A stretch of DNA of 46,054 bases from Escherichia phage vB_EcoS_ACG-M12. Location of the stretch: the sequence record NC_019404.1; one strand, written 5' to 3'. A program made the position numbers and the translations under genes. The notes below the pieces were generated by a model, which was not told where the DNA came from, searched no databases, and worked only from the letters and a program-made list of their open reading frames with translations. Positions within the stretch are counted from its first letter, which is position 1. Each line of letters begins with the position of its first letter. This document shows, piece after piece, positions 1,026 through 46,014 of this stretch.

Positions 1026-1309
1026 TGATCGACTTCAACTTTGAAGTAACAAAACTGAGCCACGAAGAGATTGCTGAAATCGCAGAGAAGAATGGCAAGC
1101 CAGTTGAGTTAATCGCCGCGAATTATAACGGAATGCGCTGGGCTTTTGAGAATGGATGCGATAAGGATAAGCTAGCTGAAATCGCCAAGGAAAATATTGC
1201 TAGCAAGAAGAAGATCAAGCCGTGGTACGAGAAGCACACTCGCACTGAATGGGAGGAAGCTATGGAGTTGTGGCAGTTAATGAAGAAGCTAAACAAATTG
1301 GTAAAATAG
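1025..1309 (+). CDS. hypothetical protein (94 aa)
   Basis: ATG overlaps the upstream stop (TAATG); SD AAGGAG. Confidence 0.5.
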   Translation: MIDFNFEVTKLSHEEIAEIAEKNGKPVELIAANYNGMRWAFENGCDKDKLAEIAKENIASKKKIKPWYEKHTRTEWEEAMELWQLMKKLNKLVK

Positions 1310-1379
1310 CACTTTTTGTTAAAACTCCATGGAGGGAGTTTGGCATAATAGCTTCATTGAAATGAGAGAGGGATTCAAA
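1305..1379 (+). promoter_or_regulatory. conserved intergenic cassette (box variant AATAGCACTTTTTGTTAAA; -10-like CATAAT)
   Basis: Box starts at 1305 and spans the stop of gene 1025..1309; leader CATTGAAATGAG precedes the ATG at 1380. Confidence 0.5.
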
Positions 1380-1460
1380 ATGTACTACGACGTTATCGCT
1401 GTTTGCCTGGTTGCCATTGTTGCTATTGTTGCAATTGTTAAGATTACGGAGAAGAAGTAA
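1380..1460 (+). CDS. tiny hydrophobic peptide (26 aa, MYYDVIAVCLVAIVAIVAIVKITEKK)
   Basis: ATG preceded by GAGAGGG; single predicted transmembrane helix; below the track length cutoff. Confidence 0.35.
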   Translation: MYYDVIAVCLVAIVAIVAIVKITEKK

Positions 1461-1588
1461 TGCATACCATACAGATTAACGATTTAATTAGCGATGCCTT
1501 ACCATGGATAATCTGGTCCCTTGGATTTATGATTGTGTATATTATTGCATCCTTCGCGGATGATGCTAAAGAGGAAATTAAAGAATGA
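1460..1588 (+). CDS. small membrane protein (42 aa)
   Basis: TAATG overlap with the previous ORF; hydrophobic core WIIWSLGFMIVYIIASF; stop overlaps the next start (ATGA). Confidence 0.35.
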   Translation: MHTIQINDLISDALPWIIWSLGFMIVYIIASFADDAKEEIKE

Positions 1589-1815
1589 TTACTATCAACC
1601 TTTCAGATAAACAAGCTGCCGAGCTTAAAGAGGCGATGTCTATAAAGAAAATTCGATACGGCCAGTTTGAACGGGCAGGAGTTATGAGGGAAGTGATTAA
1701 ACAGATCAACAACCAGCAGTTCGACGTAAGTGACTTCGAGAGCTCTCGACAATACGAGGCGCTAAGCGTTAATGCTGCGTACCTGAATAGCTGGGATAAG
1801 GCGACTAAGAAATGA
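1585..1815 (+). CDS. hypothetical protein (76 aa)
   Basis: ATG, overlap-coupled to neighbours. Confidence 0.5.
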   Translation: MITINLSDKQAAELKEAMSIKKIRYGQFERAGVMREVIKQINNQQFDVSDFESSRQYEALSVNAAYLNSWDKATKK

Positions 1816-1985
1816 ATCTTGACAAAGAGGTATTAAGAGATAATTTCATAGCTCACGGAATTGATGATGAAGATTTCCTAAATTGGTTCCTTGATAAAAA
1901 AGCCGATGAGCTTGGTTTGTACTGGTTCTCAACTGGTGCGACAATGTACGAGGCATGGGTGGCAGCAATGGAGACTAATAAATGA
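1812..1985 (+). CDS. hypothetical protein (57 aa)
   Basis: ATG overlapping the upstream stop; uninterrupted frame to TGA; below the track cutoff. Confidence 0.4.
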   Translation: MNLDKEVLRDNFIAHGIDDEDFLNWFLDKKADELGLYWFSTGATMYEAWVAAMETNK

Positions 1986-2116
1986 TTTACATCCATACGT
2001 ACTATACAGGCAAGTTTAATAGCGTTAAGCATGTTCACGTGCACGATAGCTACGATAGCGCAAAGGCGCAATGGCTTGTTCTAGGTGGTGACATTAATTC
2101 ATATAGAATCGCTTAA
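1982..2116 (+). CDS. hypothetical protein (44 aa)
   Basis: ATGA overlap with the previous ORF; stop TAA directly followed by the dyad box. Confidence 0.35.
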   Translation: MIYIHTYYTGKFNSVKHVHVHDSYDSAKAQWLVLGGDINSYRIA

Positions 2117-2190
2117 TAGCACGAATTGCTAAAACTGTATTGTGGTAATTTGATATAGTTACCCTATCAACAACGAGATGGAGCATAGAG
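2115..2190 (+). promoter_or_regulatory. conserved intergenic cassette (AATAGCACGAATTGCTAAA ... TATAGTTAC ... CAACAACGAG)
   Basis: Box at 2115-2133, TATAGTTAC at 2154-2162, gene ATG at 2191. Confidence 0.55.
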
Positions 2191-2400
2191 ATGAAAGTAA
2201 AAATTATTGATGATGATTGCACTGGATTACAGGAGTTAACGCTTACAGAATGCGGCTTTCAGATTGGTGACGTGGTAGAAGTTTACGGCAAGTACAAAGA
2301 CGGAGGCCTGTCAGTTAAGGTTATTCGTAATACTGAGTTTGTTTCAGTCGGAAATGAGATTAGCTTACAGGAAGGCGAATACGAGGTGATTGAAGAATGA
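2191..2400 (+). CDS. hypothetical protein (69 aa)
   Basis: ATG with GGAG upstream. Confidence 0.5.
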   Translation: MKVKIIDDDCTGLQELTLTECGFQIGDVVEVYGKYKDGGLSVKVIRNTEFVSVGNEISLQEGEYEVIEE

Positions 2401-2576
2401 AATTTCATCAGAGCAACCCAAAGCTACAGGCCAACCACCTCGACGGCTACGCAACTTTCATTATTGCTCAGGCTTGCGGAATGCGTGAAGACCCACAAGT
2501 TCACACCATCCACATGACTGAAGAGCAAGCTCGAGAATTGGCTTACGAAATTCTTGAGCAATTGAATCGAATTTAA
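2397..2576 (+). CDS. hypothetical protein (59 aa)
   Basis: ATGA overlap with the upstream gene; open frame to TAA. Confidence 0.4.
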   Translation: MKFHQSNPKLQANHLDGYATFIIAQACGMREDPQVHTIHMTEEQARELAYEILEQLNRI

Positions 2577-2625
2577 CGCGCATAGGACGCATTTTAACGG
2601 ACTATAATTTAAGGAATACGATTAG

Positions 2626-2763
2626 ATGGACAACTACGAATTACCAAGCCAGTGGGCCAAAAGGATGATGTATGAAGCTAAGGACGGCAACGAGTCTATG
2701 GCATACTTTGAGCTTATGAACCTATGGAAAGAGCGAGAAGATAAAAATAGCACGAATAGCTAA
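2626..2763 (+). CDS. hypothetical protein (45 aa) ending ...NSTNS
   Basis: ATG with SD AAGGAA; C-terminus is encoded by the dyad box itself (AAT AGC ACG AAT AGC TAA). Confidence 0.4.
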   Translation: MDNYELPSQWAKRMMYEAKDGNESMAYFELMNLWKEREDKNSTNS

Positions 2764-2823
2764 ACGCAGTCGCCACGGATGGCATATAATTACTTTACCA
2801 ACACAACGAAGAGAGATATAAGA
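2746..2823 (+). promoter_or_regulatory. conserved intergenic cassette (box inside the 3' end of gene 2626..2763; -10 TATAAT at 2785-2790)
   Basis: AATAGCACGAATAGCTAAA followed by GGCATATAATTAC and a leader before the ATG at 2824. Confidence 0.5.
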
Positions 2824-3486: not shown

Positions 3487-3561
3487 GCTCTGTTAGCTTA
3501 ATGGAAAAAGCCGCAGCCTTCTAAGCTGTTGATGGTGGTTCGACTCCACCACGGGGCGCCA
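3487..3561 (+). tRNA. tRNA-Arg(UCU)-like, 75 nt with encoded CCA
   Basis: Hand-folded cloverleaf: acceptor GCTCTGT/ACGGGGC (two G-U pairs), D-stem GCTT/AAGC with GG in the loop, anticodon stem GCAGC/GCTGT with loop CTTCTAA, T-arm GGTGG-TTCGACT-CCACC, discriminator G, CCA. Confidence 0.6.
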
Positions 3562-3580
3562 AATTCAAGGAGTCCTATCA

Positions 3581-3809: not shown

Positions 3810-3834
3810 AGCCCTCGCTTGAGGGCTTTTTTTC
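3810..3834 (+). terminator. rho-independent terminator
   Basis: Hairpin AGCCCTC-gctt-GAGGGCT followed by a T7 run. Confidence 0.7.
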
Positions 3835-3844
3835 GTCTGTAATA

Positions 3845-3853
3845 TGCTATAAT
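3845..3853 (+). promoter_or_regulatory. extended -10-like element TGCTATAAT upstream of terS
   Basis: TGn-TATAAT about 24 bp upstream of the ATG at 3877; no dyad box. Confidence 0.4.
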
Positions 3854-4400: not shown

Positions 4401-5969
4401 ATGTCTTTAGTATGGGAAGAGATGACCATTCAGGAAAAGATGGCTGTCAAGGCGATATCAGAGCATAGTTTTGAGGGCTTTTTAAGGTGTTGGTTTTCAA
4501 TAACACAAGGCGAGCGATACATCCCTAACTGGCATCACAAGTATCTTTGCCGAATTATCGACGAGATTATTGCCGGGGAGCGCAAGGACACTATCATCAA
4601 CATAGCGCCCGGTAGCGGTAAGACAGAGATCGCTTCAATCCATTTCCCAGCCTACTCAATGGTTAAGCTGAAGAAGGTGCGAAACCTCAATATATCTTTT
4701 GCCGACTCACTGGTAAAGCGCAACTCCAAGCGCGTGCGTGACCTTATCAAGTCACCAGAATTTCAGTCGCTTTGGCCTTGCAAGTTTGGCACGTGCAAGG
4801 ACGATGAGCTTCAGGTTCTTGATGAGAGCGGGAAGGTTAGGTTTGAGTCAATATCAAAGGCGGCGGGAGGTCAGATTACTGGCGCTCGTGGTGGCTATAT
4901 AACCGAAACATATAGCGGGGCCGTCTTATTAGATGATTTTGACAAGCCCGCAGATATGCTATCAGCAGTCTACCGAGCAAATAACCATGTAATGCTAAAA
5001 AACACAATTCGCTCCCGTCGTGCGAGTTCTGTAAAGGGAAAGGCAACGCCAATCATTTCGATACAGCAGCGATTGCACGTTAATGACTCAACCTGGTTCA
5101 TGATGGAAGGTGGGATGGGTATCGAATTCGATTTGATTAAGATACCAGCGTTGGTAACTGAGGATTACCTAGACACACTACCTGAATGGATTAAAGAACA
5201 GTTTGAAGAGGATGTCCTTAGTAGTGAATACATAGAGCGCGATGGAGTAAGGTATTACAGCTACTTCCCTAAAAAGGAGTCAGTCAATGACTTGGTTGCG
5301 ATGTGGGATAGTGACCCTTACACCTTCCTTAGTCAGTATCAACAAGAACCAGTAGCTCTAGGTGGCAACCTTATTAACGTAGATTGGTTCCAGCGCCTTA
5401 GCGACACGTTCAGACCTCCCGCTAAGTACGATTATAGATTTATAACTTGCGATACAGCTATGACTACAAAAAGTTATAGTGACTTCTCTGTCCTTCAATT
5501 GTGGGGTTATAAAGATGCTAAGATTTACCTTATTGACCAGCGCAGGGGGAAATGGGAAGCGCCCGAGTTAGAGGCAGAGTTAATCGATTTCGAGAAGAAA
5601 TCAAGGGCAACCAGTCAATCGGATGGTATCCTCCGAAAGATTATCATCGAGAAGAAAGCATCTGGAATCGGACTCATTCAATCAGCAAGTCGAGTCATGA
5701 GAACGCCAGTGGAACCTTATGTTCCTGATAATGACAAGTTAACAAGGGTGATGAGTGCGCTGCCACAGATTAAGGCTGGTAACGTAGTTCTTCCTGAGTC
5801 TGCGCCGTGGTTAAGCGGATTGCTTACTGAGATTGCGGCATTTACCGCTGACGACAGCCACAATCACGACGACCAAATTGATACCATGACAATGGCTATC
5901 AACCTGGTTCTGAACATTGCGGATGACCCTAAGGCGAGACTAATGCGCATAGCGGGAATAATAAAATAG
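4401..5969 (+). CDS. terminase large subunit (522 aa)
   Basis: Walker A IAPGSGKTEIAS in the N-terminal ATPase; size and position; acidic C-terminal nuclease-like region. Confidence 0.85.
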   Translation: MSLVWEEMTIQEKMAVKAISEHSFEGFLRCWFSITQGERYIPNWHHKYLCRIIDEIIAGERKDTIINIAPGSGKTEIASIHFPAYSMVKLKKVRNLNISFADSLVKRNSKRVRDLIKSPEFQSLWPCKFGTCKDDELQVLDESGKVRFESISKAAGGQITGARGGYITETYSGAVLLDDFDKPADMLSAVYRANNHVMLKNTIRSRRASSVKGKATPIISIQQRLHVNDSTWFMMEGGMGIEFDLIKIPALVTEDYLDTLPEWIKEQFEEDVLSSEYIERDGVRYYSYFPKKESVNDLVAMWDSDPYTFLSQYQQEPVALGGNLINVDWFQRLSDTFRPPAKYDYRFITCDTAMTTKSYSDFSVLQLWGYKDAKIYLIDQRRGKWEAPELEAELIDFEKKSRATSQSDGILRKIIIEKKASGIGLIQSASRVMRTPVEPYVPDNDKLTRVMSALPQIKAGNVVLPESAPWLSGLLTEIAAFTADDSHNHDDQIDTMTMAINLVLNIADDPKARLMRIAGIIK

Positions 5970-6038
5970 CACTAATTGCTAAACATTAATGCCATGGATG
6001 GTGTATAGTTACCTCACACAAGCGAAGGGAGATAAAAG
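5965..6038 (+). promoter_or_regulatory. conserved intergenic cassette (box overlaps the terL stop TAG; TATAGTTAC at 6004-6012)
   Basis: AATAGCACTAATTGCTAAA ... GTGTATAGTTACC ... AGCGAAGGGAG. Confidence 0.55.
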
Positions 6039-9420: not shown

Positions 9421-9460
9421 TTGCCTATCATCTCATCATTGCGTGGTCTAAAAACTCGTG

Positions 9461-9466
9461 TATAAT
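9461..9466 (+). promoter_or_regulatory. -10-like TATAAT upstream of the major capsid gene
   Basis: CGTGTATAATG about 40 bp upstream of the ATG at 9505. Confidence 0.35.
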
Positions 9467-13124: not shown

Positions 13125-13200
13125 ATAGCACTTTTTGTTAAAGACTAAAAATCAAAATGCTGTATAGTTCAATCATCGAAACGAAATGAGAAATTAAGAA
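13125..13200 (+). promoter_or_regulatory. conserved intergenic cassette (GATAGCACTTTTTGTTAAA ... TGTATAGTT ... CATCGAAACGAAATGAG)
   Basis: Precedes gene 13201. Confidence 0.5.
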
Positions 13201-13818: not shown

Positions 13819-14138
13819 AGAGGGCGGTGTATCTACAGTACCAGTCAGAGCCAACTGATGCCGAACTGGAGGCTATTGGGATGCGCCGCTCTGATTACGA
13901 AGATGAAGAGCCTGAAGTTTTACACTTCGACGAAAACATGATGAAAGCATGGGACATTTACTGTTCAATGGCTACGCAGTGGAGAGTCGGAGCTAACGGA
14001 GCTACAGGTCTAGATTACAACGTGCTAAATTTCCTCTTTAGAGTGTATAATGTCTCAGAAGAAGAATTGGTGCTCAGCGATTTACGCATCCTTGAAGCTA
14101 AGGCTCTTGAGATGATGGATAACCTGAGAAAAAAATAA
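13504..14138 (+). CDS. predicted frameshifted chaperone fusion (GT-like) via -1 slip at 13809-13815
   Basis: ORF 13827..14138 is in the -1 frame relative to 13504..13818 and has no ATG of its own (track start is GTG); classic arrangement before the tape measure. Confidence 0.5.
13809..13815 (+). other. candidate -1 programmed frameshift site A_AAA_AAC
   Basis: X_XXY_YYZ heptamer in the zero frame (GTA AAA AAC TAA); the -1 frame stays open into ORF 13827..14138. Confidence 0.55.
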
Positions 14139-17152: not shown

Positions 17153-17223
17153 TAGCACTAAATGGTAAAGCCAAAAGGATTTGGCTTGCTATAATCAACT
17201 CATTAAAAGCATGAGGTGATAAA
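17151..17223 (+). promoter_or_regulatory. conserved intergenic cassette (AATAGCACTAAATGGTAAA ... TTGGCTTGCTATAATC)
   Basis: Box directly after the tape-measure stop; TGCTATAAT extended -10-like box at 17187-17195. Confidence 0.5.
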
Positions 17224-18845: not shown

Positions 18846-18911
18846 ATAGCACGAATTGCTAAAGACGATTTAAAAAGATGGGGTATAGTTACCCAATCGA
18901 AACGAGAGGAG
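18845..18911 (+). promoter_or_regulatory. conserved intergenic cassette (AATAGCACGAATTGCTAAA ... GGTATAGTTACC ... CAATCGAAACGAGAGGAG)
   Basis: Box at 18845-18863, TATAGTTAC at 18884-18892. Confidence 0.55.
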
Positions 18912-32096: not shown

Positions 32097-32115
32097 AATA
32101 GCACGAATTGCTAAA
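32097..32115. promoter_or_regulatory. isolated dyad box AATAGCACGAATTGCTAAA at the 5' end of the tail fibre gene, without a downstream -10 or leader
   Basis: Only copy not followed by a TATAGTTAC box and leader; lies between a TACAAT-like element and the SD of the minus-strand fibre gene. Confidence 0.4.
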
Positions 32116-32140
32116 GTGGATTGTAGCATCTTTAGGGCAT

Positions 32141-32162
32141 AAAAAAACCTCCCGAAGGAGGT
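32141..32162 (-). terminator. rho-independent terminator for the minus-strand primase transcript
   Basis: Reverse complement reads ACCTCC-ttcg-GGAGGT plus T7. Confidence 0.65.
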
Positions 32163-33088
32163 TAGTTATTCAATAAATCACTTGCCTTATATATCTTCTT
32201 CCTTATTCCGCTCTTGAATGAGTTTTCATCATTTGGTATTACCACATCAAGATTGCGATCATCAGCAACGGCGAGTAAATCAAAATCATGACGAGTACAA
32301 GCGACGCGTAACTTGTAGTCTCTAAGCGCATAAGCAACCATTTCCATGTTGTAACTGGAGTAGCAAACAAGCACACACCGGTTGCCAGTAGCAAGATGAA
32401 CGCGAACACCATCAATCCAATTATCGACCAGATAAGAGTACTCATCATCCTTAAGGGAACCAATAACAGAAACAGATTGGCGAGAATAATCTTTTGCAGC
32501 ATAACTAACATCTCCTTCCTCATTGATAAACATTACATTGCACATTTCTTCTGATATACCGTCACTATAAGCCATGAAGCACGGTATTGCGTGTATTAAT
32601 TCACCGGATTTTGTCCTACCAACATCAAATCCAAACTCGCTATAAATACCCTCGTATGTACTTAGCGGGGTTGATTCTACTCTTTCCGTCCTTTCCAGTA
32701 TCTCTAAGCATCTTTCGTGGTCAATCTGCGCGCCCATCTTGTATGGTGATGTCCTCGATGCTCTTTTGTTTGCTTTAGCTACTATCTCAACTGGAACCAG
32801 ATTTAACCAGTCACCTAATACATTTATACACTCACTAAAAGACTCTCCTCTTAGTTTCTGCACCCACAAAATTCCATCGCCTGACCCACACTGGTTGCAA
32901 ATGATTCCACCATCCCCAGGTTCACTAACTTTATCAGTCCACCTGCTACGGTCATTACCGCCACAATACAAGCATGGTTGATGCTTCTTAGTTTTAAAGA
33001 AGTTTGGGTCTGCCCCGCAAATCTGAACCATTGCGTCAGCCCATAAACCTTTCATCTTTTGTAGTACTTCTTTCTTATCGTGATTCAT
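32162..33088 (-). CDS. DNA primase-like protein with N-terminal zinc-binding motif (308 aa)
   Basis: CLYCGG-x17-CNQCG zinc ribbon near the N-terminus; start at the ATG 5 nt after GGAGG. Confidence 0.45.
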   Translation of the reverse strand: MNHDKKEVLQKMKGLWADAMVQICGADPNFFKTKKHQPCLYCGGNDRSRWTDKVSEPGDGGIICNQCGSGDGILWVQKLRGESFSECINVLGDWLNLVPVEIVAKANKRASRTSPYKMGAQIDHERCLEILERTERVESTPLSTYEGIYSEFGFDVGRTKSGELIHAIPCFMAYSDGISEEMCNVMFINEEGDVSYAAKDYSRQSVSVIGSLKDDEYSYLVDNWIDGVRVHLATGNRCVLVCYSSYNMEMVAYALRDYKLRVACTRHDFDLLAVADDRNLDVVIPNDENSFKSGIRKKIYKASDLLNN

Positions 33089-33143
33089 ATGCACCTCCAT
33101 AAACAATAAAGGCACCATACATAATGTAGAGTGCCAATGTTTA

Positions 33144-33650
33144 TCAAATCGTGCTTTTTTTCTCTGCTTCTCTCTTTTTCTTATTCTCTTCTTTAATCTT
33201 ACGCCATGATCTGGCAGGCGGCTTTGTTGCTAACTCCTCTTTCTTAACAACTCTAAGCATTTCTCGACGGTCACAACGCAATGTTAAAGGCTTACCATTA
33301 CTATCAAATCGAAGGTCTGGACGAATGAAGCTAGCTCGATAACCCTCGCCTGTACGCTTGTACTTACCGTGTAATTTCTGCGCACCTTTAGCTGAAATCA
33401 TTCCGCGTTTACACCATTCAGAAACTACTGCATGTGTCACATTAGCGGCTTTTGCTAGCTTCGATTTACCACCATAAAAATCAAGTACAATCTCAAGTCG
33501 GGCGCGTAAACTAGCTCTCACCTCATCCTTCAAAGTGTAGTAGCCATAAGGTCGACTACGTTCTTTCTTGTCTTCACCGCGATGAGTTCCGTTATTACCA
33601 TTTAATGTGCGCTTGTCTACTTCACCAGTTGATGCCGCAATTCTCGTCAT
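33144..33650 (-). CDS. HTH DNA-binding protein with basic C-terminal tail (168 aa)
   Basis: LAKAANVTHAVVSEWCKRGMISAKGAQKL helix-turn-helix-like segment; Lys/Glu-rich tail; divergent from the helicase gene. Confidence 0.45.
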   Translation of the reverse strand: MTRIAASTGEVDKRTLNGNNGTHRGEDKKERSRPYGYYTLKDEVRASLRARLEIVLDFYGGKSKLAKAANVTHAVVSEWCKRGMISAKGAQKLHGKYKRTGEGYRASFIRPDLRFDSNGKPLTLRCDRREMLRVVKKEELATKPPARSWRKIKEENKKKREAEKKSTI

Positions 33651-33661: not shown

Positions 33662-33750
33662 AATAGCACTTTTTGTTAAAAGTCGTTTTGATTTAGTGTT
33701 AGTATTGTACTCAACAAAACGCCACAACACAAATTAATAGGGCTTAACAA
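33662..33750 (+). promoter_or_regulatory. conserved intergenic cassette (AATAGCACTTTTTGTTAAA variant) in a divergent promoter region
   Basis: Box at 33662-33680; TAGTAT-like -10; precedes the helicase ATG at 33751. Confidence 0.45.
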
Positions 33751-35746: not shown

Positions 35747-36166
35747 ATGAAGATTACAGATAAAGAAGATTACATTGAGTTTTACCCGGGTGCTGTAAAA
35801 TCATGTCCAAAGGAGGATGACGAACAAATCTTTTGCTCTGATTGGGTTAAGTACCATTATCCGCAGATTGTTTACTGGCACACGATTAATGAAAATAAGA
35901 AGACCATAGGGCAAGCAAGAAAAGACCAGGCGAAAGGACTCCTTAAGGGCGTATCAGACTGCTTATTCCTGATACCTGAATCAATGCGAGGCAAATACCC
36001 TTTTGGAGCCATAGAGCTAAAGAGGGCAGGAAAAACTCAAGCAAGCCCTGTCAGCGATGAACAAAAGGTTTTCTTAAAAAGCGTAAGGGAATCAGGCGGT
36101 TTCTCTGCTGTAGCCTACGGTCGCGAAGGTTTTCTTGCAGCATTCAAAGAAATGATTTCAAAATAG
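35747..36166 (+). CDS. VRR-NUC domain nuclease (139 aa)
   Basis: D...E-x-K arrangement (SDCLF...GAIELKRAGKTQ...Q) characteristic of VRR-NUC as recalled; coupled to the helicase. Confidence 0.5.
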   Translation: MKITDKEDYIEFYPGAVKSCPKEDDEQIFCSDWVKYHYPQIVYWHTINENKKTIGQARKDQAKGLLKGVSDCLFLIPESMRGKYPFGAIELKRAGKTQASPVSDEQKVFLKSVRESGGFSAVAYGREGFLAAFKEMISK

Positions 36167-36242
36167 CACGAATTGCTAAAGAAGATTTTAAAGGATGGGG
36201 TATAGTTACTCCATCGAAACGAAACGCAGAGAGAGAAACAAA
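36162..36242 (+). promoter_or_regulatory. conserved intergenic cassette (AATAGCACGAATTGCTAAA ... GGTATAGTTACTCCATCGAAACGAAACG)
   Basis: Box overlaps the stop TAG of the VRR-NUC gene; TATAGTTAC at 36201-36209. Confidence 0.55.
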
Positions 36243-37016: not shown

Positions 37017-37207
37017 TTAATGCAACTTGTGTAAAAGCAAATGGTTCCTTTACTCTACTTGAAGATTACGAAATTATCTTTAATTCAGATGGTGCAATAA
37101 CAGTATTAAGCGATGATGGATGCTATTGGTTCGTTAGTTATCAAGGTGATGGGTATTACGGGTGTAGAGATTCTAATGGAAAAGAAGTTAGCTTCTTAGT
37201 AGAATAG
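37013..37207 (+). CDS. hypothetical small protein (64 aa) with YQGDGYY motif
   Basis: Shares SYQGDGYY with gene 40864 (AEYQGDGYY). Confidence 0.4.
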   Translation: MINATCVKANGSFTLLEDYEIIFNSDGAITVLSDDGCYWFVSYQGDGYYGCRDSNGKEVSFLVE

Positions 37208-37277
37208 CATTTTTTGTTAAAACTAAAATCCACGGATGGATTATATTAAACACATCAACAGCGCAGAGGATTGAGAT
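37203..37277 (+). promoter_or_regulatory. conserved intergenic cassette (AATAGCATTTTTTGTTAAA variant)
   Basis: Box overlaps the stop TAG of gene 37013; GGATTATATTAAACACATCAACAGCGCAGAGG. Confidence 0.45.
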
Positions 37278-37985: not shown

Positions 37986-39122
37986 ATGGCAACTGCAAAA
38001 ATTACCAACGAACAGCTTCTTGAAGAGCTGATTAACGGCATGACCAACAAGGCCATTGCAGAGAAGTACGGAATGAACATTCGCAATGTTGAGTTGCGTC
38101 GCAGTAAATTGGCGAAGCAGGGTGAATGGCATGGAAACCCAGGCATCAAGAAGCTAGTTCCTGACGGTTATTTGGTCAAAGGCACATCAACGATGATTGA
38201 TGCCGAAGGTAACGAAAAGCTGCGCTGGGTTAAAACATCCGTAGATAATGAGCGCCTTGAGGTTTTAATGGAGCAAGCCCGAGAAGCATTCTGCTCTGAT
38301 TTGCCAAAGGCTATTCCATCTGAATCACCGAATGTTAACTTTGATGACAACACGCTTGCGATGTATCCAGTCTTTGACTTGCACATTGGAGCAATGGCTC
38401 ACAAACATGAGTGTGGCGAAAACTACGACACAGAAACAGCAGAGAAGGTTATGAATGGTTTCTTTGACTACGCTGTAGATAAGGCTCCGAACTCAAAGAA
38501 TGCCGTGCTTGTTCTTGGTGGTGATTTCTTGCATTACGATTCATTAGAGGCAAAAACACCAGCGTCAGGCCATATCTTAGATTCTGACAGCCGTTACGCA
38601 AAGATTGTTTATGTCGCAATCCGTTCAGTGCGACGTGCAATTTCTAGAATGATGGAAAAGCATCAAGTTATTGATATTAAAGTAATAAGTGGAAACCACG
38701 ACGAGGCAGGGATGGTTTGGCTGCGCGCTGCGCTTGCTGCGTTTTATGAAGATGAACCGCGCGTAAATGTTGATGTTAGCCCAGCCGCAATGATGATGAC
38801 CAGCTTTGGAACTACGCTTATTGGATACACCCACGGGCATCAAATGCGAAAAGCAGATACGCGACTAACTGTTATGGCAACCGATTTTCGTAAGTTATTT
38901 GGTCAAAGTGAGTATGTTTACACACATAGTGGCCACTGGCATTCGCAGAAGATTACAGAAACAAACTTGGGTATTGATGAGGTTCATGGGCAGCTTGGAA
39001 GCCCTGACGCGTACTCAGCAAATGGCGGATGGCGCTCTCAACGTCAAGCGGCGGTTATTGTCTACCATAAAGAATTCGGTGAAGTTGGCCGCTTCATTTG
39101 TCGCCCTAAAATGTTTGGATAA
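37986..39122 (+). CDS. metallophosphoesterase (calcineurin-like) with N-terminal HTH-like domain (378 aa)
   Basis: DLHIG (DxH), GGDFLHYD (GDxxD), GNHDE (GNHD/E), later HGH and GHWH motifs; N-terminal NKAIAEKYGMNIRNVELRR helix-turn-helix-like. Confidence 0.6.
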   Translation: MATAKITNEQLLEELINGMTNKAIAEKYGMNIRNVELRRSKLAKQGEWHGNPGIKKLVPDGYLVKGTSTMIDAEGNEKLRWVKTSVDNERLEVLMEQAREAFCSDLPKAIPSESPNVNFDDNTLAMYPVFDLHIGAMAHKHECGENYDTETAEKVMNGFFDYAVDKAPNSKNAVLVLGGDFLHYDSLEAKTPASGHILDSDSRYAKIVYVAIRSVRRAISRMMEKHQVIDIKVISGNHDEAGMVWLRAALAAFYEDEPRVNVDVSPAAMMMTSFGTTLIGYTHGHQMRKADTRLTVMATDFRKLFGQSEYVYTHSGHWHSQKITETNLGIDEVHGQLGSPDAYSANGGWRSQRQAAVIVYHKEFGEVGRFICRPKMFG

Positions 39123-39193
39123 TAGCACATTTTGTTAAAACAGTAGCCGCGAAAGCGGCTATTATTGTTTTATACAAACGGGAGGGGATTTAA
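39121..39193 (+). promoter_or_regulatory. conserved intergenic cassette (AATAGCACATTTTGTTAAA variant) containing hairpin TAGCCGC-gaaa-GCGGCTA
   Basis: Precedes the HNH gene at 39194. Confidence 0.45.
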
Positions 39194-39688
39194 ATGGATT
39201 GGAATGATTTTCTTGAGTATAGAGATGGCAGGCTTTACTGGACTGACCCGCATTCAACAAAACTCAAGCCAGGTGATGAGGCTGGCAGCAGGCACCATAT
39301 GGGTTATTGGTACATTCGCAGATATGACAAAACAATGTCAAGGCACAGAATCGTATGGGAGATGCACAACGGACCAATACCAGAAGGCATGGAGATAGAT
39401 CATATAAATCACGCCCCTGGTGATGACAGGATTGAAAACCTAAGAATGGTCACAAGAAGGCAAAACAATCAAAACAAGAAATTAGATGGAAGAAATACAA
39501 GCGGACACGTCGGGGTCAGCTTGAACAAGAAGACAAACAAATGGAGAGCAATGATAGGCATAAAGGGAGAGGACGGAAAGAGGAAAACTCTATACGTTTA
39601 CTATGGTGATTCTTTCGATGACGCAGTGTCAGCAAGAAAGAGAGCTGAGGTTGAGTACTCATTTCACGAAAATCACGGAAGAAGCTAG
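39194..39688 (+). CDS. HNH homing endonuclease with AP2-like domain (164 aa), paralogue of gene 17224
   Basis: MDWNDFLEYRDGRLYW ... HRIVWEMHNG ... IDHINH ... RIENLR; clear paralogy with the 17224 protein. Confidence 0.75.
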   Translation: MDWNDFLEYRDGRLYWTDPHSTKLKPGDEAGSRHHMGYWYIRRYDKTMSRHRIVWEMHNGPIPEGMEIDHINHAPGDDRIENLRMVTRRQNNQNKKLDGRNTSGHVGVSLNKKTNKWRAMIGIKGEDGKRKTLYVYYGDSFDDAVSARKRAEVEYSFHENHGRS

Positions 39689-39689: not shown

Positions 39690-39764
39690 AATAGCACTTT
39701 TTGCCTAAAGCATGCCGTATAAATGCGGCATAATTACCACATCGAAACGAGATGAGGAATTGTA
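39690..39764 (+). promoter_or_regulatory. conserved intergenic cassette (AATAGCACTTTTTGCCTAAA ... GGCATAATTACCACATCGAAACGAG)
   Basis: Precedes gene 39765; contains hairpin ATGCCG...CGGCAT. Confidence 0.5.
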
Positions 39765-40240: not shown

Positions 40241-40795
40241 ATGACTAAATTATTTATCCTTAATGGCCCCGCTGGAGTTGGTAAGGATACTATAGCGGAT
40301 ATCATGGTTGAGACTGGTGTCGCCAAAGAAAAGGTATCATTCAAGTCACCAATGTTTAACGTTGCTAGAGGTATTCTTTCAATAGATGAATTCGATTGGT
40401 TTATTGAAAACTACAACAATCGCGACGAGAAGGAGAAACATCAGAAAATTCTAGGTGGAAAAAGCATTCGAGAGTTCATGATCTGGATTAGCGAGTCTGT
40501 AATGAAGCCAGTCTTTGGTGATGATGTTTTTGGTAAAAGGCTCGCCCAGTCACTTAGTGATGGTTGCTACATTTGCGCTGACGGTGGATTTGCTAGCGAG
40601 ATTAAGCCACTGATCGACGCTGGTGTTGAGGTCACGTTAATCAGATTGCATAGGGCGGGGCACACATTTGATGGCGATAGTCGCTCATACATTCACGGGG
40701 TGTGCGCAAGAGAAATTGATGTTCGTGTTGTTGGTGGTGATATTGATGGAACATCAGCATTGGTAAGGCACGTAATAAATAGCACTAATTGCTAA
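40241..40795 (+). CDS. P-loop kinase, dNMP-kinase-like (184 aa) ending ...NSTNC
   Basis: KLFILNGPAGVGKDTIADIM resembles the T4 gp1 dNMP kinase N-terminus (from memory); ATG directly after the HAD gene stop; C-terminus encoded by the dyad box. Confidence 0.5.
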   Translation: MTKLFILNGPAGVGKDTIADIMVETGVAKEKVSFKSPMFNVARGILSIDEFDWFIENYNNRDEKEKHQKILGGKSIREFMIWISESVMKPVFGDDVFGKRLAQSLSDGCYICADGGFASEIKPLIDAGVEVTLIRLHRAGHTFDGDSRSYIHGVCAREIDVRVVGGDIDGTSALVRHVINSTNC

Positions 40796-40863
40796 AGATA
40801 ATAATAAAAACTGAGTTATCATTAACACATCGAAACGAGATGAAACAAACGAGGAAACACAAG
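40778..40863 (+). promoter_or_regulatory. conserved intergenic cassette (AATAGCACTAATTGCTAAA ... CACATCGAAACGAG)
   Basis: Box forms the last codons of the kinase gene; leader precedes the ATG at 40864. Confidence 0.5.
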
Positions 40864-44173: not shown

Positions 44174-44244
44174 CTTAATGCTCCATCTCGTTAATGTGCG
44201 GGTATTATATAACACCCGCTCAGTATGTCTTTATCTTTTAGTGC

Positions 44245-44598
44245 TTATTTGTATTGCGCCTCGAATTTGTAAGTCTCGCAGAGCGTCTTGAAGCCAACTT
44301 CCTCATCTCGGTAAAGCTGCCAGGCATTGCCTTCTTTGTCATAGATGTAACCAGCATTTTGGCCCAGGCCAGCGTGCATGTTTACCTGATATCTCTTTCC
44401 TTCCGCGAACACTTTAGAGACGCCACTCTTATGGTTAACCTTTGTGCAATACAGAGTCTTGGTCTTGATGTATTTGCCGCGCTCTGTAAGGTTCTTCCAT
44501 TTTCCATTAACCTTGATTTGCTCTACACCATCTTTAACGCGAGCCTTGAACAAATCGTTATCGCTTGAAACCCAGTGTTTTGTAATCGTAGTAGTCAT
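44245..44598 (-). CDS. hypothetical protein (117 aa)
   Basis: In-frame ATG after GAGAGGG; track start is further upstream. Confidence 0.4.
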   Translation of the reverse strand: MTTTITKHWVSSDNDLFKARVKDGVEQIKVNGKWKNLTERGKYIKTKTLYCTKVNHKSGVSKVFAEGKRYQVNMHAGLGQNAGYIYDKEGNAWQLYRDEEVGFKTLCETYKFEAQYK

Positions 44599-44599
44599 T

Positions 44600-44761
44600 T
44601 TAAGCCCTCTCTTTCGTTTTCCACATAAATTTGTTTGGTACTGATTTGCGAACGATTCGCACAACAATCTTATCTGTCTTTTGCACTAAGCCGTAAATCT
44701 TGCCGTCAAGTGATGAGCGGTATACTGCCTCTTCCATCTCGTCGTAAAAGTTGTCGAACAT
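44600..44761 (-). CDS. hypothetical small protein (53 aa)
   Basis: ATG after GGAGATGAGAA; the frame ends at TAA immediately before the next ATG; below the track cutoff. Confidence 0.3.
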   Translation of the reverse strand: MFDNFYDEMEEAVYRSSLDGKIYGLVQKTDKIVVRIVRKSVPNKFMWKTKERA

Positions 44762-44832
44762 TTCTCATCTCCCGTCTCGATGGAAAGATAATGCCGTATC
44801 TCACATAAATGCTTTTAGCAATTCGTGCTATT
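44762..44832 (-). promoter_or_regulatory. conserved intergenic cassette, minus orientation
   Basis: Reverse complement of 44814-44832 reads AATAGCACGAATTGCTAAAAGC; leader CCATCGAGACGGGAG. Confidence 0.45.
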
Positions 44833-44975
44833 GCGCGCCTTTTGTATCGCCTTAAGCATAATCTCATGACTCTCAAGCAAGTCCTCGCGGAACCAGTCGC
44901 CGCAAGGCCAGCCCTTTCCGCTGTATGCGCTGATGACCTCGAGATCGAAATAATTTATCTCAGATGGTAGTAGCA

Positions 44976-45218
44976 TCATTTCACCTCATCAAAAGTTGCA
45001 ATCCCAGGAATAAACATTCCAACCTTCCAGCCTGCAATGGCAATCCATCCAGAATCGTGCTTGTGCGGTCGATCAGCGCCTTTAATTAACCACTCGTTCG
45101 GGATTGTCTTGCCGTTAATGATTAGAGGCTCAGCGTCGTATACAGAGCCTTTTACGAATGGTGTTAAGGCTTTCTTGTCAGTGCTATTGATAACGTTAGT
45201 GCAGATTATTTTAGTCAT
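44976..45218 (-). CDS. hypothetical protein (80 aa)
   Basis: ATG start; overlap-coupled. Confidence 0.4.
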   Translation of the reverse strand: MTKIICTNVINSTDKKALTPFVKGSVYDAEPLIINGKTIPNEWLIKGADRPHKHDSGWIAIAGWKVGMFIPGIATFDEVK

Positions 45219-45402
45219 TTACAACCTCGTACTCACCTTTATAAACAGCGACCTCTTCATTCACATTGTTGACAATCACTGCTAAACAAAGAGCACCCAA
45301 ATATTTTACCACTTCGTACTCGCAGCCAAGCGTCAGACCATAGTCCTCACATGAACGTCCACTGCAATCTAAATCTTCGAATTTAACTAACTTAATTTTC
45401 AT
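45211..45402 (-). CDS. hypothetical small Cys-containing protein (63 aa)
   Basis: ATG start; CSGRSC and GCEYE motifs. Confidence 0.4.
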   Translation of the reverse strand: MKIKLVKFEDLDCSGRSCEDYGLTLGCEYEVVKYLGALCLAVIVNNVNEEVAVYKGEYEVVND

Positions 45403-45412
45403 ATCTCAATCC

Positions 45413-45592
45413 TCAAATAAATGGCAAGCATTCGACGCAGCCAAGCCCATCACAGCACATGAATTCATCTTCTGACTGGAACTGCTTTGCTAAATCAATG
45501 TCTAGCCTTCCGCGCAACACAAGGTCGGTGTAATCTTCATTAAGCCCAATCAGTGCGCACTCGTTACGTAACTCATCTTTATTCTTTTTCAT
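45413..45592 (-). CDS. hypothetical small protein (59 aa) with CCDGLGCVEC motif
   Basis: ATGA overlap with the upstream gene; below the track cutoff. Confidence 0.3.
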   Translation of the reverse strand: MKKNKDELRNECALIGLNEDYTDLVLRGRLDIDLAKQFQSEDEFMCCDGLGCVECLPFI

Positions 45593-45756
45593 TTATCCTG
45601 GCCTTTTAAATTATGACGCTCTCTCAGAACTTCAACCCATTCTTGCGCGTCATTCTCTCTCATGAAGAAACTTAACTTTGGGTACTTGTGAAACCCTTTA
45701 AGTTCAACTATCCAATGGCCACCTTCGTAACTATAACTAACTTTCTTCTCTGTCAT
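45589..45756 (-). CDS. hypothetical small protein (55 aa)
   Basis: Open frame from ATG to the TGA that overlaps the next ATG; below the track cutoff. Confidence 0.3.
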   Translation of the reverse strand: MTEKKVSYSYEGGHWIVELKGFHKYPKLSFFMRENDAQEWVEVLRERHNLKGQDK

Positions 45757-45995
45757 TTTGTTACCTTTTGAGTTTTTTTTGTTATCGACATCTCTTCAAC
45801 GTACTCGCTACAACTCGGGATTTTACTCCCGGCCCGGCATCCTAACAAAAGGACCCGCTCGGCGCTTTGGTGGGTGAGGTAACGCTTCCTCACATTGCGC
45901 GGTATCATTTACCCTTTTTAGTCCCTTTCGGGAGTGACTCAGAGTCTGCTACCGTGTCGATGAAATGAAGTATACGCACATCGATTCAATATGTC

Positions 45996-46014
45996 TTTAG
46001 CAAAAAGTGCTATT
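45996..46014 (-). promoter_or_regulatory. dyad box, minus orientation (reverse complement AATAGCACTTTTTGCTAAA), at the head of the terminal minus operon
   Basis: Followed in the minus direction by about 240 nt of GC-rich structured leader before the first small gene. Confidence 0.4.

Follow-up and report, generated by a model that had tools for sequence, protein, structure and literature searches.

A cassette that recurs along the 46,054-nt genome of Escherichia phage vB_EcoS_ACG-M12 (NC_019404.1; the window, taken at its full length) is probably a class II sigma70 promoter of the MarA/SoxS/Rob type, with a host activator at a marbox and a stem-loop layer superimposed. The cassette is defined by its sequence, orientation and spacing, is conserved throughout the phage family and carries a statistical stem signal.

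Box copies in the window and in related phages

The original prediction listed 18 boxes with the core TAGCA-N5-TGCTA, and all 18 are present, each displaced by 1-2 nt at most. With one mismatch or fewer, this core is found 22 times in the window, a total attained in no shuffle, versus 1.79 expected. A 22-nt position weight matrix (PWM), derived from 19 copies, separates these well from the background with scores of 23 to 35, and beyond two degenerate copies on the minus strand no other site scores above 10. The nineteenth copy, at 32098, is a strong box that had been missed, giving 21 copies in total (Table 1). With both neighbouring genes on the minus strand, this plus-strand box breaks the rule that boxes are always co-oriented with the next gene. 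The predicted dyad is also not borne out: conservation is lopsided, with TAGCAC near-invariant and TGCTA variable and, judged from its sequence, the box is an asymmetric marbox and not a dyad operator. The sequence TATAGTTAC occurs 21 times with one mismatch or fewer (8.9 expected in the window) and CATCGAAACGAG 13 times with two or fewer (3.3 expected); the predicted leader is real, but a good CATCGAAAC leader is present in only about half of the window copies. As anticipated, the cassettes divide the genome into numerous short units and, consistent with the suggested marking of moron-like insertions, they lie ahead of small accessory genes and of the two genes for HNH endonucleases.

The same layout is found in T1, in Klebsiella phage KP36 and in 459 unique copies from viral contigs, many of these cassettes being orthologues and so not independent. 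The box is invariant across phages of Escherichia, Klebsiella and other Enterobacterales, and none was found in the control coliphage HK578. In T1, boxes are present in either orientation within the 5′ leaders of late genes. The box was published in 2024 as a 21-nt direct repeat of phage TLS, aaATAGCACnnnTTGnTAAAA, also seen in T1, Rtp and Rogue1, with its function left open and roles as a stoperator, enhancer site or UP element suggested (German, Kropinski and co-authors, PMC11447400). The TLS repeats are the same element as the window boxes, alike in consensus, intergenic location, co-orientation with transcription, number (~18-21 copies per genome) and GAA, TTT and AAA centre subtypes. A marbox identity, a fixed distance to the -10 and a stem-loop layer do not feature in that report (PMC11447400) and are new here.

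Marbox identity and promoter architecture

The host marbox consensus for MarA, SoxS, Rob and RamA is AYNGCACNNWNNRYYAAAYN (PMC2064960, PMC3709825). Over the first 18 positions, 13 of which are specified, 17 sites in the window match it exactly versus 0.07 expected, and 17 matches are likewise obtained with one mismatch or fewer over 19 positions (1.08 expected). The phage box fits all 13 and indeed every specified position save position 19, at which the E. coli micF marbox likewise has A. Family-wide, 383 of the 459 unique copies have at most one mismatch to the consensus, nearly always at position 19. Read along transcription, the phage boxes are CAC(G/T)-N7-AAA, the same sense as in micF, as checked in the genome; micF is a class II promoter with its marbox in this forward sense (PMC8811837), and class II sites are centred at about -41 or -41.5 (PMC10268841; PMC9638938). 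As measured, micF has its marbox at 54-73, a -10 (TAGAAT) at 92-97 and its RNA 5′ end at 105, leaving a gap of 18 bp. The reverse complement of the marRAB marbox has 16 of 20 positions in common with the phage T-type box.

When the -10 is called as the best sigma70 match across a 25-position range after TGCTA, the predicted downstream hexamer is recovered exactly 22 bp past TGCTA, the commonest distance, in 15 of the 21 window copies, and three others have it at 21 or 23 bp. Measured from the marbox, the gap amounts to 18 bp in 15 of the 21 copies in the window and in 311 of the 459 across the family, with the box oriented along transcription, spanning -50 to -31 and centred at -40.5. No match to a -35 element was found in the cassettes. 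The box had rightly been judged too distant from the -10 to serve as one, and the layout is that of an activator-dependent promoter that lacks a -35. Class II promoters are reported to have the same core-promoter pattern, including no -35 (PMC10268841). In 309 family-wide copies, G-14 is present in 83%, C-1 in 71%, A+1 in 87% and T-15 in only 39%, and positions +2 to +8 (TCGAAAC) each hold 0.5-0.8 bits. The window shows no enrichment of canonical sigma70 promoters. The proposed phage-specific promoter class stands as a promoter but not as phage-specific, since the box fits the host consensus outside position 19.

No MarA homologue turned up in the window, T1 or KP36 translated in all six frames (best E-value ~1), and the analysis found nothing in support of sigma appropriation. 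Because the phage encodes no such homologue, host MarA, SoxS, Rob or RamA are the likely readers of the box, in place of the phage activator or sigma appropriator first envisaged. The phage boxes do fix positions that are free in the host consensus (A3, TT at 11-12 and two upstream As) and divide into two linked subtypes, which may mean that another protein reads them as well or instead. The searchable literature yielded no paper tying marboxes to phage promoters and no binding, activation or 5′-end data for any T1-like phage.

Table 1. Cassettes, lone boxes and the gp50 gene in the window
Feature	Position	Strand	Box	Gap (bp)	-10	Predicted +1	Remarks
gp03/04 upstream cassette	1306-1367	+	1306-1325 ATAGCACTTTTTGTTAAAAC	18	CATAAT 1344-1349	1356	
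gp08 upstream cassette	2116-2177	+	2116-2135 ATAGCACGAATTGCTAAAAC	18	TATAGT 2154-2159	2166	stem around -10
gp11 upstream cassette	2747-2808	+	2747-2766		TATAAT 2785-2790	2797	fits all 19 specified consensus positions; in-spacer stem GCCA-cgga-TGGC
gp16 (virion protein) upstream cassette, past large terminase gene	5966-6027	+	5966-5985		TATAGT 6004-6009	6016	
gp27 upstream cassette, past major-tail gene terminator	13125-13186	+	13125-13144		TATAGT 13163-13168	13175 (CATCGAAACGAA)	
HNH endonuclease gp31 upstream cassette	17152-17213	+	17152-17171 (B site TGGTAAAG)		TATAAT 17190-17195	17202	spacer hairpin GCCAAA-agga-TTTGGC, 17170-17185
gp34 (virion protein) upstream cassette	18846-18907	+	18846-18865		TATAGT 18884-18889	18896	stem GGGTA 18881-18885 / TACCC 18890-18894 flanks -10
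Extra marbox-consensus match	20686-20705	+	ATGGCACAAATGATCAAAAC				directly past extended -10 promoter TGTAGAAT (20680-20687); overlaps tail-protein gp37 start codon
gp39/gp38 upstream cassette	25374-25435	-	25435-25416		TATGAT 25397-25392	25385 (CATCAAAACGAA)	
gp40 upstream cassette	25691-25752	-	25752-25733		TACCAT 25714-25709 (weak)	25702	
Erf gp45 upstream cassette	27584-27644	+	27584-27603	17	TATAGT 27621-27626	27633	hairpin 27606-27634 around -10, dG -11.2
Orphan marbox	32098-32117	+	ATAGCACGAATTGCTAAAGT		none at 18 bp		facing terminator 32146-32163; inverted, between tail-fibre gene minus-strand -10 (TACAAT, 32125-32120) and start codon (32074); orthologous counterpart in T1
Degenerate cassette, gp50/primase gene interval	33096-33157	-	33157-33138 AAAGCACGATTTGATAAACA		TATGGT 33119-33114	33107	PWM score 20
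gp50	33159-33650	-					Cro-fold HTH, basic N-terminal arm, conserved C-terminal domain
Helicase gp51 upstream cassette	33663-33723	+	33663-33682	17	TAGTAT 33700-33705	33712	also inverted box within leader of divergent gp50 gene; -10 overlapped by gp50 canonical promoter TTGTGT-17-TACAAT (-10 33709-33704)
gp53 upstream cassette	36163-36224	+	36163-36182		TATAGT 36201-36206	36213 (CATCGAAACGAA)	best hairpin in window, GATGGGGTA 36194-36202 / TACTCCATC 36207-36215, dG -13.2, one G.U pair
gp57 upstream cassette	37204-37265	+	37204-37223 (GCAT variant)		TATATT 37242-37247	37254	in-spacer stem ATCCA-cgga-TGGAT
HNH endonuclease gp61 upstream cassette	39122-39183	+	39122-39141		TATTAT 39160-39165	39172	terminator-type hairpin 39142-39163 within spacer
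Polynucleotide kinase gp62 upstream cassette	39691-39752	+	39691-39710, 1-nt insertion in B half (TTGCCTAAAG)		CATAAT 39729-39734	39741 (CATCGAAACGAG)	
gp64 upstream cassette, 5′ of lysis genes	40779-40840	+	40779-40798		TATCAT 40817-40822	40829 (CATCGAAACGAG)	
Degenerate cassette, DNA helicase gp69 upstream	44186-44247	-	44247-44228 TAAGCACTAAAAGATAAAGA		TATAAT 44209-44204	44197	PWM score 10
gp71 upstream cassette	44770-44831	-	44831-44812	18	CATTAT 44793-44788	44781 (ATCGAGACGG)	
gp76 upstream cassette, right end	45951-46013	-	46013-45994	19	TATACT 45974-45969	45962	

Stem-loops and a proposed mechanism

The original prediction overlooked a stem-loop layer over the -10 region. Copy-specific complementary stems surround the -10 or occupy the spacer, and the GGATGG and CCATC motifs are their two arms. 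A stem lies around the -10 in 215 of 386 cassettes and inside the spacer in 135, with a mean z of -2.75. The 5′ arm takes 110 different sequences in 184 stems, and G.T pairs inside the stems number 23 versus 6 A.C pairs. An unbiased column-pair scan finds a contiguous helix of -24 to -19 with -1 to -6; the covariation score, 0.227 versus 0.183, is attained in 2 of 500 shuffles and peaks in the unslid register, the excess of single-register hairpin covariation over controls being only modest. These copy-specific stems are most likely RNA stems.

The mechanism that we infer extends to the identity of the protein, activation, the start site, the negative action of downstream marboxes and the role of the stems. 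The marbox ATAGCAC-N5-TGYTAAAAC (20 bp, -50 to -31) would be bound by a host activator of the AraC/XylS family acting as a monomer; in E. coli this would be Rob, MarA or SoxS, with RamA a further candidate in Klebsiella and related hosts. One helix-turn-helix would read GCAC and the other the YAAA half, which covers the usual place of the -35. In contact with the alpha C-terminal domain, sigma70 region 4 and the beta-flap tip, the bound activator would stand in for -35 recognition and bring RNA polymerase to the G-14 / TATAGT -10, 18 bp downstream, with transcription predicted to start at the A of CATCGAAAC. Because Rob pre-exists infection, the cassette promoters could fire on DNA entry without a phage protein. 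The 18-bp spacer and 6-nt discriminator, the sole sequence-free positions, would specify a stem-loop in transcripts that read through from the upstream gene, either a terminator within the spacer or a stem around the -10. Marboxes past or across other promoters would presumably act negatively, as at 20686 (tail-protein start), 32098 (tail-fibre leader) and 33663 (gp50 leader); the placement at 20686 appears operator-like and not that of a class II site.

Some background facts count against this mechanism. Unstressed cells contain little MarA or SoxS and their Rob is mostly inactive, yet T1 is vigorous in ordinary cultures, and classical T1-resistant mutants affect the receptor and TonB, rather than rob, mar or sox. 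Redundancy of the three activators could hide a rob, mar or sox effect in T1-resistance genetics, and G-14 plus a good -10 might suffice for substantial activity with no activator.

Alternative explanations and known promoter systems

It is unlikely that a phage-encoded protein reads the box and activates from about -41, with the marbox likeness reflecting mimicry, competition or coincidence. The most plausible candidate would be gp50, the sole family-wide phage HTH protein. It is limited to this group of phages and highly conserved, its 89 homologues being no less than 50% identical and lying on contigs of ~46-52 kb; its core resembles the specific DNA-binding Cro proteins Xfaso-1, N15 and P22 Cro (TM ~0.7, target-normalised). 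With a canonical sigma70 promoter in the window, T1 and KP36, gp50 could be made first, and one of only three canonical promoters in TLS is at the equivalent place. An inverted box between the gp50 start site and Shine-Dalgarno sequence in these three phages, from three genera, is suggestive of autoregulation but doubles as the class II marbox that belongs to the divergent promoter of the helicase gene. The 10-bp half-site spacing of the TAGCA-N5-TGCTA core suits a dimer, whereas the strong asymmetry and strict orientation of the box fit a symmetric dimer poorly. The gp50 recognition helix differs among genera while the box is constant, and coincidence must account for 13 of 13 specified positions, the orientation and a gap of 18 bp as in micF.

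Invariant GCAC and G-38, and spacing precise to a single base pair, are foreign to UP elements and make it improbable that the cassette is a factor-independent promoter of G-14, -10 and UP-like box, even though the frequency of G-14 and the good -10 hexamers suit polymerase alone, the ends and centre of the box are A/T-rich and a UP-like role was put forward by the TLS authors (PMC11447400); with so low a frequency of T-15, most copies fall short of a full extended -10 promoter. Equally improbable is a decoy that titrates MarA, SoxS and Rob and so blunts the host stress response: perfect marboxes are ~250 times denser in the phage than by chance (the chance rate being extrapolated), but a decoy needs no set distance or orientation to a -10. 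That the box lies outside promoters altogether, as an RNA-level processing, anti-termination or silencing signal or a stoperator-like repressor site, is very improbable. The stop codon of the upstream gene often overlaps the box, a stem-loop with RNA-type wobble bias then follows, the TAGCA/TGCTA core could pair into a 5-bp stem, retained in TGTTA by a G.U pair, T1 has boxes in late-gene leaders in both orientations and stoperators were among the options named by the TLS authors (PMC11447400). However, an exact distance of 18 bp (22 bp from TGCTA) to a sigma70-patterned -10, with G-14 and a CA start, would be pointless for an RNA signal or silencer, the element matches no Rfam family and a genome-wide repressor is implausible in a strictly virulent phage.

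The class II MarA/SoxS/Rob/RamA promoters of Enterobacterales, with micF as the archetype and lpxC P2, lpxL P1 and rfaY P1 as further members, have in common with the phage cassettes a 20-bp asymmetric forward marbox that fits AYnGCACnnWnnRYYAAAYn, lies over the -35 with its centre at about -41 and is 18 bp from the -10 (micF), no recognisable -35, and a canonical -10 and start. Particular to the phage are the virulent genome with ~20 copies in 46 kb, boxes that are much nearer the consensus and much more uniform than host marboxes, the fixed A3, T11, T12 and upstream AA, the two linked subtypes, a conserved initial transcribed sequence (AUCGAAAC), a stem-loop built into the spacer and discriminator and an activator dependence that is putative. 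Mu middle and late promoters (Mor, C) and lambda PRM (cI at OR2) also lack a -35 and have an activator site at about -31 to -55 or near -42, strictly spaced to a sigma70 -10, and a site at or past the start represses; their activators are phage-encoded dimers on dyads, whereas the site here is asymmetric, of a monomeric host family with no phage homologue. T4 middle promoters (MotA box, AsiA sigma appropriation) likewise combine a -10 with a non-sigma70 upstream box with TGCT. MotA boxes have their centre at about -30 and lie ~11-13 bp from the -10, whereas the phage box ends 18 bp from it, centred at -40.5, and no sign of sigma remodelling was found. Mycobacteriophage L5 stoperators are also numerous asymmetric sites, genome-wide and mostly in one orientation relative to transcription, but they bind a temperate-phage repressor with no fixed relation to a -10, whereas the boxes here are locked to a -10 to the single base pair in a virulent phage. 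If the class II marbox reading is correct, a large share of phage gene expression is tied to MarA, SoxS and Rob, the host's regulators of stress and antibiotic resistance.

Box copies, spacing and the core promoter

All 18 boxes listed in the original prediction are present in the window, in which TAGCA-N5-TGCTA occurs 22 times with one mismatch or none, against 1.8 expected. A position weight matrix (PWM) built from 19 copies scores these at 23-35 bits and two degenerate copies at 20 and 10, with no other window site scoring above 10; a strong copy at 32098 was absent from the earlier list. One match to the pattern, at 3464 just upstream of a tRNA gene, is a chance occurrence and not a box. 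The window consensus is AAATAGCAC-N3-TTG(C/T)TAAA(A/G) and, in typical copies, the box begins ~75-95 nt before the start codon. Conservation within the box is asymmetric, so that it is not the true dyad it was taken to be. The co-orientation with the next gene holds for the other copies but not for 32098, where the neighbouring genes are opposite, and the leader CATCGAAACGAG attributed to most copies is well matched in only about half of them. A search for the best sigma70 -10 hexamer over a 25-position range downstream of each box placed it exactly 22 bp downstream of TGCTA in 15 of the 21 copies, with three others at 21 or 23 bp; the degenerate boxes also have a -10 at 22 bp (TATAAT and TATGGT). 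Gene numbers are those of the Escherichia virus ECH1 record (MN164484.2), a virulent T1-like siphovirus (Drexlerviridae, Braunvirinae, Guelphvirus) that is ~96% identical to the window over the first 20 kb (BLAST 96.4%). The two are equal in length yet only 90.9% identical position by position, which implies small compensating indels or a divergent isolate. By position, divergence is slightly lower in the boxes (7.4%) than over the genome on average (9.1%).

When related genomes were scanned with the window PWM, T1 yielded 22 boxes and Klebsiella phage KP36, which belongs to a different genus and has a different host, yielded 17; in each of the two, 14 boxes have their best -10 at exactly 22 bp. 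The same scan of the unrelated coliphage HK578 found none. An exact-pattern scan of viral contigs yielded 459 unique cassettes (box, spacer, -10 and leader) in which the best -10, sought over a 32-position range per cassette, is 22 bp away in 311 and 21-25 bp away in 394. Profiled position by position, the 309 cassettes with exactly 22-bp spacing have conserved G-14 (83%), C-1 (71%) and A+1 (87%) residues and moderately conserved +2 to +8 positions (TCGAAAC), none of which is imposed by selection of the hexamer, and the -10 hexamer itself retains T1, A2 and T6. The -35 to -30 region is part of the box and reads AAA(A/C)Cn (profile AAAACn), unlike TTGACA, and canonical sigma70 promoters are not enriched in the window (38 versus 34.6, 33 versus 43.2 and 11 versus 13.4 expected). 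Taken together, the profile, the 22-bp spacing and the lack of canonical-promoter enrichment identify the cassette, on sequence criteria, as a sigma70-type core promoter without a -35 element, with transcription predicted to start at A+1 and the transcript to begin AUCGAAAC.

The cassette is a genuine feature of the whole family, and its box has already been published, as a repeat without an assigned function. In 2024, a re-annotation of phage TLS documented a 21-nt direct repeat, aaATAGCACnnnTTGnTAAAA, in 18 intergenic copies (DR1-18) that are oriented along transcription ~76 nt before start codons and have GAA, TTT or AAA centres; its authors remarked on similar repeats in T1, Rtp and Rogue1 and identified no more than three canonical sigma70 promoters; leaving the function open, they suggested stoperators, enhancer sites or UP elements (PMC11447400). 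The window boxes agree with these repeats in consensus, intergenic location, direction relative to transcription and distance to the start codon. Genome papers on closer relatives report promoter searches for the canonical type only, and no transcript-mapping data for T1-like phages were found in the literature.

Fit to class II marboxes and competing explanations

The near-invariant ATAGCAC, more variable TTGYTAAA, strict orientation and A/T-rich centre of the box invite comparison with the marbox, an asymmetric 20-bp site with an A site (GCAC) and a B site (YAAA) 7 bp apart that is bound by MarA, SoxS, Rob and, in Klebsiella and Salmonella, RamA, all monomeric activators of the AraC/XylS family. 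The marbox consensus is AYNGCACNNWNNRYYAAAYN (PMC2064960, PMC3709825). Positions 1-18 of this consensus are matched exactly 17 times in the window, with 0.07 matches expected, and 16 of the 17 are phage boxes; with 19 positions and at most one mismatch there are 17 window matches versus 1.08 expected. Exact matches number 15 in T1, 12 in KP36 and none in HK578. In the family set, 383 of the 459 boxes depart from the full 20-position consensus at one position at most, nearly always position 19, and the marbox of marRAB itself, as its reverse complement ATGCCACGTTTTGCTAAATC, has 16 of 20 positions in common with the TTT-type phage box.

The geometry also conforms. In class II promoters, the marbox faces forward, overlaps the -35 region and is clustered around -41, with no recognizable -35 but a canonical -10 and start site (PMC10268841, PMC12052159). 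At micF, a class II promoter, the top strand reads CACT-N7-AAA with the marbox centred at ~-41 (PMC8811837), also given as -41.5 (PMC9638938). In the phage, the boxes run from -50 to -31, with their centre at -40.5 and CAC(G/T)-N7-AAA read in the direction of the gene, and 20 of the 21 in the window point at a -10 and a gene, the exception being 32098. As a direct control, the E. coli K-12 micF locus has its marbox, ACAGCACTGAATGTCAAAAC, at locus positions 54-73, its -10 (TAGAAT) at 92-97 and the RNA 5'-end at 105, so that marbox and -10 are separated by 18 bp. The corresponding phage distance, 22 bp from TGCTA less four further marbox bases, is likewise 18 bp in 15 of 21 window copies and 311 of 459 family copies, and micF and phage boxes have the same AAAAC 3'-end. 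With five independent matches, in consensus, orientation, centre, spacing and core-promoter type, a class II marbox is the best-supported reading of the box, which fits that promoter class in sequence, position and core-promoter properties; the cassettes would then form a regulon of such promoters, read by host MarA, SoxS, Rob or RamA, with an RNA stem-loop superimposed. No paper linking marboxes to phage promoters was found in the literature.

Other promoter classes fit less well. A dyad operator for a dimeric phage helix-turn-helix (HTH) protein, with the box centred at -42 as for lambda cI or Mu Mor/C, was demoted given the asymmetric conservation and orientation, the variable recognition helix of gp50, the candidate phage HTH protein, and the exact fit to a host consensus bound by monomers. 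A canonical sigma70 promoter requires a TTGACA-like element at 16-19 bp; here TTGCTA is at 22 bp with no -35 match at 16-18 bp, and a hidden -35 at that distance (AAGACA) occurs in only a few copies and is absent from the family-wide profile. In the sigma54 consensus (-24/-12), TGGCAC-N5-TTGCW, the GG and the GC are both invariant, at a distance of exactly 10 bp, whereas the box, TAGCAC-N3-TTGCT, has AG for GG in essentially all copies and the GC 2 bp too close. T4 middle promoters have a MotA box centred at ~-30, 11-13 bp from the -10; the phage box is centred at -40.5 and ends 18 bp (TGCTA 22 bp) from the -10. Stoperators, which bind a repressor, are dispersed through transcribed DNA without a set position relative to promoter elements, and here the distance to the -10 is constant to the single bp in 68% of 459 copies. 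UP elements are A/T-tracts at ~-40 to -60 that the alpha C-terminal domain recognizes and that lack any invariant G or C; in the box G-47, C-46, C-44 and G-38 are 97-100% conserved. As for a known RNA family, the Rfam gathering threshold is passed in the window only by the tRNA-Arg gene.

The class II reading also bears on which protein recognizes the box. A maximum-sensitivity phmmer search with E. coli MarA of six-frame translations of the window, T1 and KP36 gave a best E value of ~1, and no AraC-type domain was found in eight first-expressed or regulator-like phage proteins; the readers are therefore likely to be host MarA, SoxS, Rob or RamA. Searches of gp01 and other first-expressed small proteins against Pfam, PHROGs and PDB sequences gave no functional lead to a regulator. 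In the mechanism documented for class II promoters, a single activator monomer places its helix 3 in GCAC and its helix 6 in the B site; its contacts are with the alpha C-terminal domain, with sigma70 region 4 and with the beta-flap tip, and region 4 is held away from the -35 (PMC9638938). The rival candidate reader is gp50, a strongly conserved protein of 164 residues confined to this phage family and confidently modelled (pLDDT 85.6) as a Cro-fold HTH closest to Xfaso-1, N15 and P22 Cro, with a conserved basic N-terminal arm and C-terminal domain. An early-type promoter and an inverted box in its own leader would suit such a role, but its recognition helix varies while the box remains constant, and the box is asymmetric. 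No gp50 relatives outside the family, in which co-variation with a different box might be sought, were found. Binding of gp50 may instead be directed to GTTAC iterons. To return to the host activators, Rob is abundant in cells before infection, so the cassette promoters could fire without any phage product.

The centre of the box is linked to its B half: the boxes, including those of the family set (loci L007-L102), divide into the subtypes CAC-GAA-TTGCTA and CAC-TTT-TTG(T/C)TA, with GAA centres accompanied by TTGCTA in 139 cases and TTGTTA in 3, and TTGTTA found almost only with TTT. Orthologous promoters of different genera have the same subtype; those of the helicase gene and the right end, for example, are of the TTT type in the window, T1, KP36 and TLS. 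This suggests affinity tuning or preference among paralogous activators.

Stem-loops and additional promoter arrangements

On either side of the -10, T1 and KP36 have arms that are copy-specific yet complementary (GGGGTA...TACCCC, AAGGCC...GGCCTT, AGGGGA...TCCCCT), and in the window the GGATGG and CCATC originally noted in spacer and leader form the two halves of such a stem. Stems surround the -10 in 215 of 386 cassettes and are contained within the spacer in 135, many of the latter being annotated rho-independent terminators; only 21 cassettes lack a stem altogether. Against shuffled sequences the mean z score is -2.75, and folding is more favourable for the sense strand than for the antisense (-10.8 versus -9.2 kcal/mol, p ~5e-19). 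Among 184 stems there are 110 distinct 5'-arms, and internal G.T pairs outnumber A.C pairs by 23 to 6, a bias that points to function as sense-strand RNA and not as a cruciform or protein site. A DNA cruciform exposing a single-stranded -10 is further disfavoured by commonest loops of ~10 nt, and at only 5-9 bp the stems are too short for RNase III. No Rfam family matches the stem-loop. An unbiased scan of all column pairs recovered one contiguous helix, pairing -24 to -19 with -1 to -6, plus the in-spacer register. In a formal count of 135 unselected, non-redundant cassettes, 45.0% of cells are paired versus 41.2 +/- 1.3% (reached by 1 of 500 shuffles) and the covariation score is 0.227 versus 0.183 (reached by 2 of 500); covariation peaks in the unslid register, and two slid registers have a slightly higher percentage of paired cells. 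The modest size of this effect is attributed to the use of several registers, and orthologous copies are not independent of one another. The stems appear to fill exactly those positions that are not constrained by the promoter, namely the 18-bp spacer and 6-nt discriminator, and presumably would function in RNA that reads through from the upstream gene, as a terminator where a U-rich -10 follows and otherwise as a 3'-end protecting or processing structure. A transcript from the cassette's own +1 would be without the stem.

Three marboxes are not in the class II position for a gene that they touch.

Marboxes in unusual positions and other features of the window
Feature	Position (strand)	Observation
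Marbox	32098-32117 (+)	no -10 at 18 bp; faces terminator
Tail-fibre -10	32125-32120 (-)	TACAAT
Marbox	33663-33682	class II for helicase promoter; also inverted in divergent gp50 leader
gp50 gene	33159-33650 (-)	HTH protein
gp50 -10	33709-33704	TACAAT
Helicase -10	33700-33705	TAGTAT
Marbox	20686-20705	22nd consensus match; towards its gene but just after tail-protein extended -10
Extended -10 sites	9459-9466, 20680-20687, 3833-3848, also 14044-14051	
gp01 promoter	457-485	TTGTCT-17-TATAGT
Non-coding region	1-527	15 GTTAC/GTAAC per kb; gp01 begins at 528
Non-coding region	25753-26059	33 GTTAC/GTAAC per kb; gp41 begins at 26060
tRNA-Arg gene	3487-3558	sole Rfam match in window
Clearest window stem	36194-36202 with 36207-36215	GATGGGGTA paired with TACTCCATC
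HNH genes	17201-17701 and 39194-39688	5'-ends ATGAACTGGAATGAT... and ATGGATTGGAATGAT...

The 32098 box is inverted between the -10 and start codon of the tail-fibre gene, and the orthologous orphan box of T1 follows TTGCAA-17-TAAAAT. A small-RNA promoter at 32098 was rejected, as the predicted start would fall within the terminator. The gp50 gene has a canonical promoter in T1 (TTGAAT-17-TATAAT), KP36 (TTGTCA-16-TATAAT) and the window (TTGTGT-17-TACAAT), and its -10 overlaps that of the helicase promoter, an arrangement kept in T1 and KP36, so that the two promoters should be mutually exclusive. In T1, boxes are present in either orientation in the leaders of the orthologous tail-protein gene and several other late genes. 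Host marboxes that overlap core promoters repress, as at pbpG (PMC12052159), which makes it plausible, by analogy, that phage marboxes work in two ways, by activating early units and by damping some of the late ones.

A separate class of promoters has an extended -10 (cTGTATAATg, TGTAGAAT, TGTAAAAT) with no marbox upstream, is positioned directly after rho-independent terminators of structural genes and precedes the small terminase, major head and tail-protein genes. T1 has such sites at ~24995-25010 and ~18800-18815, and several T1 promoters of this class are then followed by a marbox, in either orientation, within the 5'-leader. The only canonical-looking promoter before gp01, which encodes a DUF7174 protein, is the counterpart of TLS promoter P01 and has a cassette-like GTATAGTTAT -10 region and leader, but a -35 instead of a marbox. 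The two large non-coding regions are dense in (G/A)GTTAC(A/G) and GTAAC words in both orientations (2.1 per kb elsewhere), both have a tatatataaa...(TTA)n...(TA)n tract, and in neither does a marbox precede the first + strand gene; they may be replication origins or early control regions, possibly bound by gp50. The annotated starts of ECH1_03, ECH1_31 and ECH1_53 (1329, 17201 and 36195) are upstream of, or at, the predicted +1 of their own cassette, and ATGs further downstream with good Shine-Dalgarno sequences, at ~1380 (gp03), AAAATGAACTGG (gp31, HNH) and ~36240 (gp53), seem likelier starts. The two HNH genes are paralogous and have near-identical 5'-ends, and each is preceded by a separate marbox cassette with a hairpin in the spacer, as would fit mobile genes that move together with a cassette or insert behind one.

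Consequences for T1-like phages

Classic in the laboratory and notorious as contaminants of fermenters, T1-like phages are also candidates for phage therapy, and their transcription has so far been described as a handful of canonical promoters plus a 21-nt repeat in genome papers. The class II marbox reading provides a concrete, cheaply testable model for ~20 promoters per genome. It is possible, although at present doubtful, that early and middle expression in the Drexlerviridae depends on host MarA, SoxS, Rob or RamA and so responds to bile salts, salicylate, redox stress and antibiotic-selected mar or ram mutations; that ~20 near-perfect marboxes per replicating genome titrate these short-lived or limited activators, shutting down the host resistance regulon; and that this constitutes a built-in timer, with marbox-activated early promoters fading as late promoters with a marbox across or after the start (tail protein, tail fibre) are released. 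If the marbox reading is true, phage yield should shift with salicylate, bile salts, paraquat or dipyridyl, deletion of rob, marA and soxS should attenuate T1 contamination, and replicating phage DNA should be a sponge for these regulators. Multidrug-resistant strains from the clinic in which MarA or RamA is overproduced should then be better hosts, which bears on phage-antibiotic combinations, and compact, very strong natural marbox promoters would be available for the study of MarA, SoxS and Rob. These phages would also be the first virulent family, no other having been found, with most of its promoters hard-wired to the antibiotic and stress activators of the host.
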